Source: Escherichia coli
GTDB taxonomy: Bacteria; Pseudomonadota; Gammaproteobacteria; Enterobacterales; Enterobacteriaceae
Strand: one strand, 5' to 3'
Assembly: GCF_041886205.1 (NCBI RefSeq)
Contig: NZ_CP169029.1
DNA length: 64,000 nucleotides
The notes beneath the pieces are model-generated. The model made no database searches. It was not told the origin of the DNA and saw nothing but the letters and a program-made list of their open reading frames with translations. The position numbers were made by a program, and so were the translations under genes. Below, one piece after another: positions 15,990 to 35,306 of the stretch. The stretch's first letter is position 1; each line of letters begins with the position of its first letter.

Positions 15990-16316
15990 ATGACTAAAAA
16001 TACTCGTTTTTCCCCCGAAGTCCGTCAACGGGCAGTCCGTATGGTTCTGGAAAGTCAGAGCGAATATGACTCACAATGGGCGACAATTTGTTCCATTGCT
16101 CCAAAGATTGGCTGTACGCCGGAGACTCTGCGTGTCTGGGTTCGCCAGCATGAGCGGGATACCGGGGGCGGTGATGGAGGGCTCACCACCGCTGAACGTC
16201 AGCGTCTGAAAGAGCTGGAACGTGAAAATCGTGAACTGCGCCGCAGTAACGATATCCTTCGCCAGGCTTCCGCTTATTTTGCGAAGGCGGAGTTCGACCG
16301 CCTCTGGAAAAAATGA
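15990..16316 (+). CDS. IS3-family transposase OrfA (HTH)
   Basis: 108 aa [21 protein letters not shown]...; leucine-zipper-like C-terminus. Confidence 0.85.
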
Positions 16317-17203
16317 TGCCACTGCTGGATAAGCTGCGTGAGCAGTACGGGGTCGGACCGCTATGCAGCGAACTGCATATTGCCCCGTCAACGTATTACC
16401 ACTGTCAGCAACAGCGACATCATCCGGATAAACGCAGTGCCCGTGCGCAGCGCGATGACTGGCTGAAGAAAGAGATACAGCGCGTATACGATGAAAATCA
16501 CAAGGTATACGGTGTGCGTAAAGTCTGGCGTCAGTTGTTACGGGAAGGTATCAGAGTGGCCAGATGCACTGTGGCACGTCTCATGGCGGTTATGGGACTT
16601 GCCGGTGTTCTCCGGGGTAAAAAGGTCCGTACGACCATCAGCCGGAAAGCCGTTGCCGCAGGCGACCGCGTAAACCGTCAGTTCGTGGCAGAACGACCTG
16701 ACCAGCTGTGGGTGGCTGATTTTACTTACGTCAGCACATGGCGGGGCTTCGTCTATGTGGCGTTCATCATTGATGTGTTTGCCGGATACATCGTGGGGTG
16801 GCGGGTCTCATCGTCCATGGAAACGACATTCGTGCTGGATGCACTGGAGCAGGCGTTATGGGCCCGTCGACCGTCCGGCACGGTCCATCACAGTGATAAA
16901 GGTTCTCAGTATGTATCGCTGGCCTACACACAGCGGCTTAAGGAAGCCGGATTACTGGCATCAACAGGAAGTACAGGCGACTCGTATGACAACGCGATGG
17001 CGGAGAGCATCAATGGTCTTTACAAAGCGGAGGTAATACACCGTAAGAGCTGGAAAAACCGTGCAGAAGTGGAACTGGCCACACTCACGTGGGTGGACTG
17101 GTATAACAATCGACGATTGCTGGAAAGGCTGGGCCATACTCCTCCGGCAGAAGCAGAAAAAGCTTATTATGCTTCCATCGGAAACGATGATCTGGCAGCC
17201 TGA
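16313..17203 (+). CDS. IS3-family transposase OrfB (DDE integrase core)
   Basis: 296 aa with rve-type DDE domain; overlaps orfA in -1 frame. Confidence 0.85.
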
Positions 17204-19047: not shown

Positions 19048-19467
19048 TTAAGAGGCTTTTTGTTTTTTCTTTCGTGCTAACTCTTCGTAAATTGCATTGT
19101 ACTTCTGTTTTTTCTCTTCAAGAGTTTTTAAAAGTTCATCTGTCTCACTGTCAGGGAGCTCGTCCAGAAGGTCAATGATGATTTTTTGTCTTGGATTTAA
19201 CTCCTGATAGAAACGTACCTGTCCACTTTCTTCTGTATCCTCTCCCAAAAGATAGGTTGGTGTTGTTCCTATTAGTGTTGCTAATTCCCTTAATTTCTCC
19301 CGGCGAGGAATTGTTTCGCCATTAAACCATTTGCTAACCGCTTTTGGTGTTAATTTCATTCGACGGGCAATTTCTGCCTGCCTTCCATGTTGTTCATAAC
19401 CAGCGTTTTCACAGGCTAGCGCAAGCCTACTGGCGAACTCTTTACGCGCTTTATCTTCATGAACCAT
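19048..19467 (-). CDS. prophage repressor, XRE-family HTH (RacR/DicA-like)
   Basis: 139 aa; HTH QAEIARRMKLTPKAVSKWFNGETIP; divergent from a Cro-like gene. Confidence 0.7.
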   Translation of the reverse strand: MVHEDKARKEFASRLALACENAGYEQHGRQAEIARRMKLTPKAVSKWFNGETIPRREKLRELATLIGTTPTYLLGEDTEESGQVRFYQELNPRQKIIIDLLDELPDSETDELLKTLEEKKQKYNAIYEELARKKKQKAS

Positions 19468-19546: not shown

Positions 19547-19801
19547 ATGAACCAGAAAACACTTGAAGATGTAATCAAAACTGTTCGCGTTGCTGTTGTG
19601 GCCGACGTTTGTGGTGTCAGCCAAAGAGCAATCTATAAATGGATGGATAACGGAAAATTGCCTCGCACAGAATATACCGGCGAAACAAATTACGCTGAAA
19701 AAATCGCTCTTGCATCAAACGGATTATTTTCTGCCGATGCAATTTTAACTATTGGCAGGAATAAAACTACTACGAAAAAGCTGATGGGAGTTGATTCATG
19801 A
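19547..19801 (+). CDS. Cro-like / YdaS-like small DNA-binding protein
   Basis: 84 aa from MNQKTLEDVIKT...; RBS GAGGG; position opposite the repressor. Confidence 0.55.
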   Translation: MNQKTLEDVIKTVRVAVVADVCGVSQRAIYKWMDNGKLPRTEYTGETNYAEKIALASNGLFSADAILTIGRNKTTTKKLMGVDS

Positions 19802-20223
19802 AAATCAAGCATGAACACATCCGCATGGCGATGAATGCCTGGGCGCATCCGGACGGCGAAAAAGTACCGGCTGCGAAAATTACCAAAGCGTATTTCGAGC
19901 TGGGAATGACGTTCCCGGAACTGTATGACGACAGCCATCCGGAAGCCCTGGCTCGCAATACTCAGAAAATTTTCCGCTGGGTGGAGAAAGACACCCCTGA
20001 TGCGGTTAAAAAAATTCAGGCGTTGTTACCAGCTATCGAAAAAGCAATGCCACCTCTGCTGGTGGCCCGAATGCGCAGTCATAGCTCAGCCTATTTTCGG
20101 GAACTAGTGGAGACGCGGGAACGACTGGTGAGAGACGCTGATGATTTTGTCGCAGTGGCGATCGCTGGTTTCAACCAGATGAATCGTGGTGGCCCTGCAG
20201 GAAATATTGTGGTTGTGCATTGA
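19798..20223 (+). CDS. YdaT-like protein
   Basis: 141 aa starting MKIKHEHI..., third gene of a RacR-YdaS-YdaT-type module; overlaps upstream stop. Confidence 0.5.
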   Translation: MKIKHEHIRMAMNAWAHPDGEKVPAAKITKAYFELGMTFPELYDDSHPEALARNTQKIFRWVEKDTPDAVKKIQALLPAIEKAMPPLLVARMRSHSSAYFRELVETRERLVRDADDFVAVAIAGFNQMNRGGPAGNIVVVH

Positions 20224-20288
20224 CTCGCAATATTCATACCGGATCACTTCCGGCAATTTGTGAGTAAAAAGATTCGGTATCAAAAGAG

Positions 20289-21365
20289 GTGAGTATGGCT
20301 AACGCCTGGCTCAGATTATGGCATGACATGCCAAATGACCCTAAGTGGCGAACAATTGCCAGGGTGTCAGGGCAGCCAATTGCAACAGTGATGGCAGTGT
20401 ATATCCACCTCTTGGTGAGCGCGTCACGAAATGTCACGCGAGGTCACATTGATGTCACGACAGAAGATTTGGCAAGTGCGCTCGACGTGACAGAAGAGGT
20501 AATTGATTCAATTTTGCAGACGATGCAGGGGCGGGTACTTGATGGTGATTTAATCACTGGATGGGAAAAACGCCAGGTGCTTAAAGAGGACAACGGCAAT
20601 ATTTCGCAAACCGCAAAATCTCCTGCAGAGCGCAAGAGGGCGCAGCGAGAGAGGGAAAGAAAGCGGGAACAAAATGGCGATTGTCACGGCGCGTCACGAA
20701 ATGTCACGCACATGTCACGACGAGTCACGACAGATAAAGATACAGATAAAGATACAGATCAAGAAGATCAAAACACTATGGTCCATGGCGTAAAAAACGC
20801 CACGAACCAGGCAGGGGATGTTCAGACCGTCAATCTTGGTCAGCCAGCAGGCACGACACCGGAAGCCGATTCAGCGTATGCGCTGAAAGCCGATTCGGGC
20901 GCTGTGCAGCAGGTGATGACCGCAAGGCCGGAGCAATCACACCAACTGCAGCAGCCCGAAGCCGATTCCGCCATTCAGCGGGAAGCCGATCGGGTAGTCC
21001 CGGAAAACACCGGGCAGTCTGTGGGACGAGTGGATTATCCGGATGTGTTCGAACAGGTCTGGCGGGAGTACCCGTTGCGTGCCGGAGCAAACCCGAAGAA
21101 ATCCGCTTTCAGTGCCTGGAAGGCCAGATTACGCGAGGGGGTGCCACCAGAGGCCATGCTGGATGGCGTGAGGCGTTACGCAAGATACTTGGCGGCTACC
21201 GGGAAAACGGGAACGGAATTTGTTCAGCGAGCGACGACGTTTTTTGGACCGGACCGGAATTTTGAGAACTCCTGGTTGCTCCCGGTAAGCGGCACGAACA
21301 ACCAGCGTTGTGTGAATCATATTTCTGAACCGGATAACGAAATTCCGCCGGGCTTCAGGGGGTAA
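20289..21365 (+). CDS. phage replication initiator / replisome organiser, O-like
   Basis: 358 aa; N-terminal WLRLWHDMPNDPKW motif; the coding sequence contains iterons; GTG start with RBS. Confidence 0.6.
   Translation: MSMANAWLRLWHDMPNDPKWRTIARVSGQPIATVMAVYIHLLVSASRNVTRGHIDVTTEDLASALDVTEEVIDSILQTMQGRVLDGDLITGWEKRQVLKEDNGNISQTAKSPAERKRAQRERERKREQNGDCHGASRNVTHMSRRVTTDKDTDKDTDQEDQNTMVHGVKNATNQAGDVQTVNLGQPAGTTPEADSAYALKADSGAVQQVMTARPEQSHQLQQPEADSAIQREADRVVPENTGQSVGRVDYPDVFEQVWREYPLRAGANPKKSAFSAWKARLREGVPPEAMLDGVRRYARYLAATGKTGTEFVQRATTFFGPDRNFENSWLLPVSGTNNQRCVNHISEPDNEIPPGFRG
20423..20765 (+). repeat. putative replication origin: nine GTCAC(G/A) iterons in two clusters plus an AT-rich tandem repeat
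   Basis: Iterons at 20423, 20433, 20443, 20454 and 20683, 20693, 20703, 20714, 20724 (10-11 bp spacing); then GATACAGATAAA x2.5. Confidence 0.5.
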
Positions 21366-21405
21366 GTGTTAATTTCTGGTCATGAGGTAATTTTCAGGAG
21401 GGCTT

Positions 21406-21828
21406 GTGGCAAAAGTTTTTACACAAGAAGAGCGGGAAAAAATTAAAGGGCAGGTTGTTGAACTCGTACGCCAGAGTGGGCGCGAGACGTTAAGACAACT
21501 GGAAACTAAAACTGGGGCAACAAAATATATGATGAACGTTCTGGCCAGAGAGCTGGTTGCCAGTGGCGATGTATACAACTCTGGTTACGGGTTATTCCCG
21601 TCTGAACAGGCGCGTAAGGACTGGCAAAATGCCCGTAAAAAGCTCTCAAGGGCAAAGCTGAAGAAACCATCTGCGGTTGATCCGGACCTTATCTGGTCAT
21701 TACCTGATGGAGAAATACGTCGTTACGACAGGCGTCATAATATGATTTGTACTGAGTGTCGTAAAAGCGAAGTTATGCAGCGCATATTGTCGTTTTATCA
21801 GGGGGATGTTCGGTATTTATTGAAGTGA
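21406..21828 (+). CDS. hypothetical phage protein
   Basis: 140 aa; GTG start 6 nt after AGGAGG; contains C-x2-C. Confidence 0.45.
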   Translation: MAKVFTQEEREKIKGQVVELVRQSGRETLRQLETKTGATKYMMNVLARELVASGDVYNSGYGLFPSEQARKDWQNARKKLSRAKLKKPSAVDPDLIWSLPDGEIRRYDRRHNMICTECRKSEVMQRILSFYQGDVRYLLK

Positions 21829-34715: not shown

Positions 34716-35306
34716 TTATATGTCAGGTGTCTGAAGTTTTGCTTTGGCTCTTAAAATGGTTTGCCGCGAGGTTTTGAATTCCCGGGCAATGGCACTTATA
34801 CTTACACCTGACTTAATTCGTTCGAATACCACCTGTTTCTGTTCTTCATTTAACACAGGTGGTCGACCAAAACGTTTCCCTGCGCCGCGGGCTCTTACTA
34901 TCCCGGAATGAGTGCGTTCAAGTAAAAGGTCTCGTTCAAATTCAGCGACTGCTGAAATTACTTGCATCATCATTTTTCCTGTTGGACTGGTCAGGTCAAT
35001 GCCACCCAATGCTAAGCAATGCACTCTGATACCTGTTTCGGTCAGTTGTTCCACTGTTTTCCTGATATCCATTGCATTACAACCAAGGCGATCCAGTTTT
35101 GTCACAATCAATTGATCACCACATTTCAGGCGAGCAAGCAACCGGTTAAAACCAGGACGCTCACTGGTTGCTGCTGAGCCGCTAATGTGTTCTTCGATTA
35201 TTTGCTGAGGTTTGATTTTAAAACCTGCACTTTCGATTTCCCGGCGTTGATTTTCGGTGGTCTGATCCAGCGTTGATATCCGACAGTAAGCAAAAATTCG
35301 AGACAT
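34716..35306 (-). CDS. serine recombinase / DNA invertase (Pin/Gin/Hin family)
   Basis: 196 aa [20 protein letters not shown]... with catalytic Ser and C-terminal HTH. Confidence 0.9.

Follow-up and report, generated by a model that had tools for sequence, protein, structure and literature searches.

A candidate replication origin with two phased repeat clusters inside the initiator gene of a Qin/lambda-like Escherichia coli prophage

The locus and its repeats

The stretch of DNA analysed here (the window) comprises 64,000 nucleotides of one strand of an Escherichia coli genome (NCBI RefSeq assembly GCF_041886205.1, contig NZ_CP169029.1) and carries a prophage gene encoding a replication initiator, within which the short word GTCAC(G/A) recurs in two clusters. 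An earlier note on this DNA had proposed that the clusters are the iterons of a replication origin embedded in the initiator gene, in the manner of ori-lambda within the lambda O gene. The features of the gene are as follows.

20295-21365, + strand: initiator gene from the open reading frame (ORF) list, 356 aa, 'phage replisome organizer'; ATG at 20295, with AAGAGG at 20284-20289
20295-20580, + strand: coding region of the N-terminal winged-helix domain, approximately aa 1-95, the presumed reader of the iterons
20423-20459, + strand: iteron cluster 1, four copies, GTCACG at 20423, 20433 and 20454 and GTCACA at 20443 only
20486-20491, - strand: lone inverted GTCACG, 27 bp past cluster 1
20683-20729, + strand: iteron cluster 2, five copies of GTCACG at 20683, 20693, 20703, 20714 and 20724, in the inter-domain linker
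20730-20775, + strand: purine-rich AT tract, the presumed unwinding element; a 12-bp tandem repeat, ACAGATAAAGAT x2.9 at 20730-20764 (Tandem Repeats Finder) followed by CAAGAAGATCAAAAC
20779-20809, no strand assigned: inverted repeat (hairpin) bounding the AT tract, TGGTCCATGGCGT / ACGCCACGAACCA with a 5-nt loop
21291-21362, + strand: C-terminal tail (..CVNHISEPDNEIPPGFRG; also ..ISEPDNEIPPGFRG), DnaT-tail-like

All nine copies listed in the earlier note were found on the + strand at the positions it gave, the inverted copy being a tenth that it had missed. Start-to-start spacings are 10, 10 and 11 bp in cluster 1 and 10, 10, 11 and 10 bp in cluster 2, in agreement with the 10-11 bp claimed, with a mean of approximately 10.3 bp or about one helical turn. 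Between the clusters lie 223 bp (229 bp start to start), close to the 225 bp first estimated. Cluster 1 encodes aa 43-55 of the protein (ASRNVTRGHIDVT), which correspond to the last part of helix 3 of the winged helix and the loop leading to helix 4.

Across the whole window GTCAC(G/A) occurs at chance level (55 copies against 53 expected), and ten of the 55 lie within 343 bp where 0.3 would be expected (Poisson P ~1e-12). Nowhere else in the 64 kb does any 5-mer form a run of at least four phased copies. The copies fall in all three reading frames (2, 0, 1, 0 in cluster 1 and 1, 2, 0, 2, 0 in cluster 2) and generate seven phased adjacencies within the gene. Shuffled-sequence controls, which the earlier note had put forward as a test that could overturn it, did not reproduce this periodicity, with seven adjacencies reached in 0 of 2000 mononucleotide shuffles (maximum 2) and in 0 of 2000 synonymous-codon shuffles (maximum 5), the latter preserving both the protein and its codon usage. 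Since the copies occupy three frames and no synonymous shuffle matches their phasing, the repeats are a property of the DNA and not of the peptide.

A single further phased 5-mer run was seen in the window, three copies of CAATGC at an exact spacing of 10 bp (34997-35022) inside an ORF on the - strand (34716-35306), which chance could explain.

Conservation of the arrays in relatives

Four distant homologues (L001-L004, 47-59% identity) were retrieved by exact-protein look-up, and a scan of one genome per species added 41 loci from gamma-, beta- and alphaproteobacteria carrying the N-terminal motif WLRLWHDMPNDPKWRT. With the near-identical L085 and four truncated copies dropped, the analysis set consisted of 41 full-length genes, namely that of the window, L001-L004 and 36 scanned loci. 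A counterpart of cluster 2, defined as a 5-mer occurring in phase at least three times within gene nt 320-530, was present in 38/41, and a counterpart of cluster 1, defined as at least two phased copies of the cluster-2 word at gene nt 110-215, in 35/41. Homologues lacking the repeats had been named as a second refuting test, and the arrays were retained where their absence would have counted against an origin. Elsewhere in these genes the array word occurs at 0.0014 per nt, which predicts 0.14 copies in the cluster-1 region compared to 3.3 observed, an approximately 24-fold excess.

The core of the repeat differs by lineage. It reads (T)GTCACG in 24 loci, L002 has GTAACG, and L001 as well as beta- and alphaproteobacterial loci have (G/T)AACGC, and in every case the core word is identical between the two clusters. 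L105 (GTCAC) and L002 (GTAAC) are mutual nearest relatives with 76% N-domain identity when the loop is masked, and therefore a single-base change of the core has spread through approximately ten copies in two clusters.

Synonymous sites were assessed in the 18 GTCAC-type genes in register with the window, leaving uncounted those codons that were forced by the selection of loci. Free synonymous sites under the repeats were near-fixed (A43 as GCG in 89%; S44 as TCA in 94%; the third base of T48 and T55 in 100%; V65 as GTG in 100%), compared to a mean fixation of 52% at 41 conserved-residue codons outside the cluster. The V65 codon covers the inverted copy, which recurs as GTGAC at approximately gene nt 192 in nearly all GTCAC-type relatives. 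Iteron number shifts by 21-bp steps, equivalent to two units and in frame, in L086, L106 and the alleles P0003 and P0022. The distance from the last copy of cluster 1 to the first of cluster 2 is mostly 227-229 bp in GTCAC-type genes and 192-319 bp overall, and because of this range no helical phasing between the clusters is claimed. A scan of viral contigs returned 80 near-identical E. coli copies, which were of no use for covariation and indicated only that the 4+5 pattern, seen in 73 of them, is fixed.

The genes next to the initiator vary among relatives. Downstream lie DnaC/IstB-like genes (L001-L003, L129), lambda-P-like genes (L004, L087, L109), DnaB (L097), DUF977 (the window) or genes of no assigned family, and upstream YdaT, cII-like, methylase, RusA or again unassigned genes. 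The helicase and loader genes found downstream in relatives argue that the gene encodes a replication initiator. The N-domain is the only constant companion of the arrays and the core word changes with its lineage, for which reasons the initiator's own N-domain is most likely their cognate binder, as judged from these sequence comparisons.

For L085 (JAIJJM010000125.1, labelled as a 'Collinsella sp.' metagenome-assembled genome (MAG)) and L125, a contig attributed to an actinobacterial MAG holds the present E. coli prophage gene at 97% identity, which is almost certainly a binning contaminant.

The AT tract, the hairpin and nearby sequences

The earlier note had described an AT-rich tandem repeat after the second cluster, and the tract at 20730-20764 indeed lies in the G+C minimum of the region (33% at 20720-20779 in a 60-bp window, the lowest value over 19800-21800), with a strong skew of A over T. 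In the relatives, the 40 nt past the last iteron average 66% A+T, compared to 44% for the whole gene, and are 71% purine, with (C/A)AGATAAAGATA-type purine repeats directly abutting the last iteron in nearly all loci. Dam (GATC) sites are present at 20757 and 20766, at the right end of the tract, and occupy the same position in L001, L003, L096, L105 and L106; this recurrence in enterobacterial relatives hints at an involvement of Dam and SeqA.

The inverted repeat that follows has DNA folding z-scores of -3.1 (+ strand) and -5.2 (- strand), the corresponding value for the lambda inverted repeat being -3.3. Its sequence in the window and in relatives of the C-domain is GGTyCATGGCG-A6-CGCCAsTGAACC, and the palindrome is also found in L001-L004, L093 and L129. 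Many other loci have GC-rich inverted repeats of unrelated sequence in the same place (for example CCCACC..GGTGGG, CCCCCC..GGGGGG and TCTCTCTCTCC..GGAGAGAGAGA). Given its modest enrichment across the family, the hairpin is a likely rather than an established universal feature.

A scan of the region for promoters and terminators gave nothing above chance, the one notable match being the hairpin itself as a terminator-like structure on the - strand. No DnaA box with up to one mismatch was found within 4 kb of the region, an Rfam scan gave no match in it and a tRNA search found none. Further into the gene AAGCCGAT occurs four times (20863, 20887, 20959 and 20983, spanning 20863-20990) in the variable linker, encoding PEADSA / KADSG / READR-type repeats, and in the natural alleles P0004 and P0013 there are deletions between its copies. 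These repeats may be either a further DNA site or merely a slippage-prone peptide repeat.

The initiator protein

The protein was assigned by PHROGs to phrog_3729 'replication initiation protein' (E 3e-257) and is named in E. coli genomes and phage records either 'phage replisome organizer' (PGAP) or 'DNA replication protein O'. The earlier note had likewise called the gene O-like, a description that fails as a statement of descent: a Pfam search of the initiator gave no match at E<=0.01, and comparison of the family profile with lambda O by hhalign returned a probability of 0.2%, leading to the rejection of lambda O homology. Against the PF09681 profile (Phage_rep_org_N) the protein aligned over positions 1-119 of 121 with an E-value of 0.009 and 16.4 bits, below the curated cut-off of 23.3. 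The structure model of the N-domain resembles the DnaD N-domain and a plasmid initiator of the RepA_N type, and on this modelled fold the initiator is a predicted DnaD-NTD-like replisome organizer.

The C-terminal tail matched the NCBIfam equivalog for the host primosomal protein DnaT with an E-value of 7e-4, over positions 156-179 of the 179 in the profile, and the DnaT chains 6aep and 2ru8 in the PDB align to the last 23-26 residues with weak E-values of 0.45-0.8. DnaT is an adaptor between PriA-PriB and DnaB/DnaC according to recent cryo-EM and crystal work (PMC13377028, PMC4132743). The identification of the C-domain as a DnaT domain was rejected, as only the last 24 residues match and the rest is unlike the DnaT fold; the C-terminal domain of DnaT, a bundle of three helices that binds single-stranded DNA (PF17948), was not found in the initiator. 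The DnaT-like tail, a close match to the C-terminal end of DnaT, may represent mimicry of a primosome contact.

Comparison with known origins

The layout of ori-lambda within gene O (PMC7466680) was used for comparison, as the earlier note had recommended. In lambda and the Stx phages 933W and P27, as proposed for the window, the origin is contained in the initiator gene, where a DNA-binding N-domain meets a loader-engaging C-domain, and the order of elements is the same, with direct repeats followed by an A/purine-rich AT tract on the coding strand and an inverted repeat last. Their place within the gene is also similar (lambda O iterons at nt 349-433, cluster 2 at nt 389-435), repeat number varies between relatives in both, and in both the N-domain and repeats swap as one module. 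The likeness to ori-lambda thus stands for cluster 2, in the linker beside the AT tract; it does not extend to cluster 1, which lies 229 bp upstream within the winged-helix coding region and has no lambda counterpart. The repeats themselves are also unlike, those of lambda (ATCCCTCAAAACGAGGGA type) being 18-bp, dyad-symmetric iterons placed approximately 20-24 bp apart, whereas those of the window are asymmetric cores of 6-7 bp on each turn, 10-11 bp apart. Lambda O has no detectable protein homology to the initiator, and lambda has a P-type loader downstream where the window has a DUF977/Ren-like gene, although the relatives L004, L087 and L109 do have a lambda-P-like gene. Since three features of the lambda system are lacking (homology to O, dyad iterons of 18-19 bp and a downstream P-type loader), the origin proposed here is not a member of the lambda O / ori-lambda family (PF04492 Phage_rep_O).

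The oriL of phage SPP1 within gene 38 is another origin inside an initiator gene to which the element can be likened (PMC5615212). The SPP1 G38P/oriL/oriR system and the Gram-positive replisome organizers of PF09681 differ from it in their hosts, the family described here being proteobacterial, and in their unrelated repeat sequences, and the Pfam score of the initiator falls short of that family's cut-off as given above. The two SPP1 sites occupy distant places in the phage genome, in contrast to the two clusters 229 bp apart in one gene.

The binding of one initiator to a short direct repeat that is present in two separate clusters is known from P1 (incC/incA), F (ori2 incB/incC) and phage P4 (ori/crr), where one cluster is the origin proper beside an AT-rich region and the other is an auxiliary or control element. 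There the second set is found beside the rep gene or at a distance of kilobases, whereas that of the window lies inside the coding sequence of the DNA-binding domain; in addition the repeats of the window are shorter and the fold of its initiator is unlike the RepA/RepE-type and P4 alpha proteins. A conserved iteron array inside the coding sequence of a DNA-binding domain is an unusual feature of this family. No description of this origin was found in the literature, the Eru papers on replication regions of non-lambdoid Stx phages not discussing origins, and both the initiator family and the two-cluster design appear to be undescribed.

Interpretation and proposed mechanism

Taken together, phased direct repeats, an adjacent AT-rich tract and a covarying initiator gene that contains the repeats are the features of an iteron-type origin, and the arrays are interpreted, at a probability of roughly 0.8 on comparative sequence grounds, as the origin of vegetative replication in a Qin/lambda-like E. 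coli prophage, lying within the gene of the prophage's own initiator. The shuffle controls and the conservation in homologues thus support the embedded, helically phased origin of the earlier note. In the best reading cluster 2, the AT tract and the hairpin would constitute the origin with cluster 1 as an auxiliary set, and it is somewhat probable that the upstream array consists of auxiliary sites for the initiator.

Judging from gene order, the initiator would be made from the early rightward operon (cro-like, YdaT/cII-like, initiator), and its DnaD-like winged helix would read the 6-7 bp core (T)GTCACG. With copies spaced one turn apart, the bound proteins would all sit on the same side of the helix and form a cooperative array. 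The five-copy array adjoins the AT tract at 20730-20775, the low stability of which was observed and which would be the site of duplex opening, with the hairpin at 20779-20809 presumably bounding the opened tract as in ori-lambda. The C-domain would then recruit the replicative helicase, in relatives by way of the phage DnaC-like, lambda-P-like or DnaB gene, while the phage of the window presumably uses host DnaB-DnaC, possibly through the DnaT-like tail. Cluster 1 may cooperate with cluster 2 by looping, or may control the origin or the gene by titration, handcuffing or a transcriptional roadblock. A bolder version, in which the two-cluster design is a distinct conserved origin architecture whose upstream array loops as an obligatory part of the initiation complex and, with the DnaT-like tail, loads host DnaB without a phage loader, is speculative and rather unlikely. 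Were it true, a change of iteron specificity would have to hit the origin, the upstream array and the reader protein at once, as the upstream sites lie in aa 43-55 between helix 3 and helix 4.

Several observations weigh against an active origin at these repeats. The cores are very short for iterons, and gene conversion between the clusters could partly account for their concordance, since a 21-nt block, GCGCGTCACGAAATGTCACGC, is identical in both. Hairpin enrichment across the family is modest, with a mean perfect stem of 5.9 bp compared to 5.0 bp in controls. The copies from one betaproteobacterial MAG (L114, L115, the truncated L119 and L122) are without both arrays, and L110 and L120 are without cluster 1. 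The window copy may also be inactive, as it lacks a loader gene and has an IS3 element a short way upstream.

The strongest competing explanation accepts the arrays as genuine sites for the initiator but assigns them a regulatory function, such as autoregulation of the operon by roadblock, copy control, or incompatibility through titration and handcuffing, with initiation taking place elsewhere. The presence of two separated clusters of one word, only one of which abuts the AT tract, is in keeping with this, as is the location of cluster 1 within the coding region, 130 nt from its start, where transcription could be halted by bound protein, and bipartite iteron sets with control roles are established in iteron plasmids, as in incA/incC of P1 and F. 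In opposition to this, cluster 2 always directly precedes the least stable, purine-rich tract, often followed by a hairpin, which is the canonical layout of an origin, and the 64-kb window has no other phased array. A purely regulatory role is on balance unlikely. It is a better fit to cluster 1 than to cluster 2, and a regulatory cluster 1 would not conflict with the origin proposed here.

That another protein binds the arrays, such as the YdaT/cII-like or DUF977 winged-helix neighbour or a host factor, in the service of partition, packaging or recombination, is very improbable. DUF977 and YdaT do flank the initiator in the window and short phased repeats are also found in centromere-like sites, but over the 41 loci the flanking genes are not conserved while the arrays and N-domain are, the core word follows the N-domain, no DnaA box at the mismatch limit given above lies within 4 kb, and by the ORF list no terminase or partition genes adjoin the initiator. 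Selection on the protein in a flexible region with no function for the DNA is hardly credible, for although the repeats translate, as the earlier note had remarked, into short peptide repeats (SRNVT twice, SRRVTT and DKDTDKDTD) and the loop at aa 43-55 is conserved within type (e.g., ASRNVTRGH versus ASNATERGRT), the 10-11 bp period is not a multiple of three, one hexamer yields SR, VT and GH across frames, synonymous shuffles never reach the phasing (0/2000), synonymous sites are near-fixed inside the cluster and not outside, and iteron number changes in the 21-bp, two-unit steps noted for L086, L106, P0003 and P0022.

The origin proposed here gives a concrete and testable site for a very common yet unstudied replication module of E. 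coli and Shigella prophages with relatives across the Proteobacteria, and with it the rule of an origin lying within the gene of its initiator would come to cover DnaD-like initiators, a family with no relationship to lambda O. It would also be a natural example of overlapping codes, with the same bases constrained both as putative binding sites and as protein. The specificity switches between GTCACG, GTAACG and GAACGC can be read straight from genomes, and the core words could help in annotating origins and in foreseeing replication incompatibility or cross-talk where several prophages share a host.

Natural variants and module exchange

In Stx phage 75/02 an unrelated N-domain is fused to the same C-terminal half, purine tract (CAAGAACAGGAA...) and palindrome. 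Its repeats again form two groups, GGGGCTTC x2 at approximately gene nt 187-208 and an inverted GAAGCCCC x2 directly before the purine tract, such that the two-group arrangement recurs with this N-domain. This fusion indicates that N-domain and repeats are exchanged as a unit, as in lambdoid O genes, and that the junction falls at the AT tract, placing a module boundary at the origin.

The E. coli allele P0020 (302 aa) has an in-frame deletion of approximately 20690-20860 that loses most of cluster 2, the AT tract and the hairpin. The deletion resembles the classical in-frame ori-minus deletions of lambda, and by this analogy P0020 is probably a replication-dead prophage allele. In L110 (Pantoea sp. 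BAV 3049) a GIY-YIG-like segment (YYVYFVVLRSNYDCYVGIS...) is present in frame at approximately gene nt 330-700, between the N-domain and the TDTDTD purine tract. On either side of this segment, palindromic repeats of the CTACGTAG type replace the usual iterons, and the locus has no cluster 1.

Genomic setting and spread

The order of genes in the window is a cI-like repressor (19048-19467, - strand), cro-like, YdaT/cII-like, the initiator, DUF977/Ren-like, DUF968 and a Q antiterminator, which makes it an early-right operon of the Qin/lambdoid kind. The initiator is not followed by a helicase-loader gene (21365-21406), the next gene (21406-21828) being the DUF977/Ren-like one, as is also the case in phage Tritos. 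DicF is not among the matches of an Rfam scan of the window at gathering threshold, while phage Tritos has DicF annotated upstream of the repressor. To the left of the immunity region lies an IS3-family element (16271-17203) with an ALIL frameshift pseudoknot at 16271-16387 and an orfB transposase at 16313-17203.

The same module is present in E. coli PCN061, where it adjoins dicB and ydfABC, and the deposited phages Tritos, Evi and vB_Eco-689R5 carry it at 98-99% identity. At 90% identity the protein cluster has thousands of member sequences, and a 4.7-kb query spanning the region was mostly present in 68 of 5426 complete E. coli genomes.

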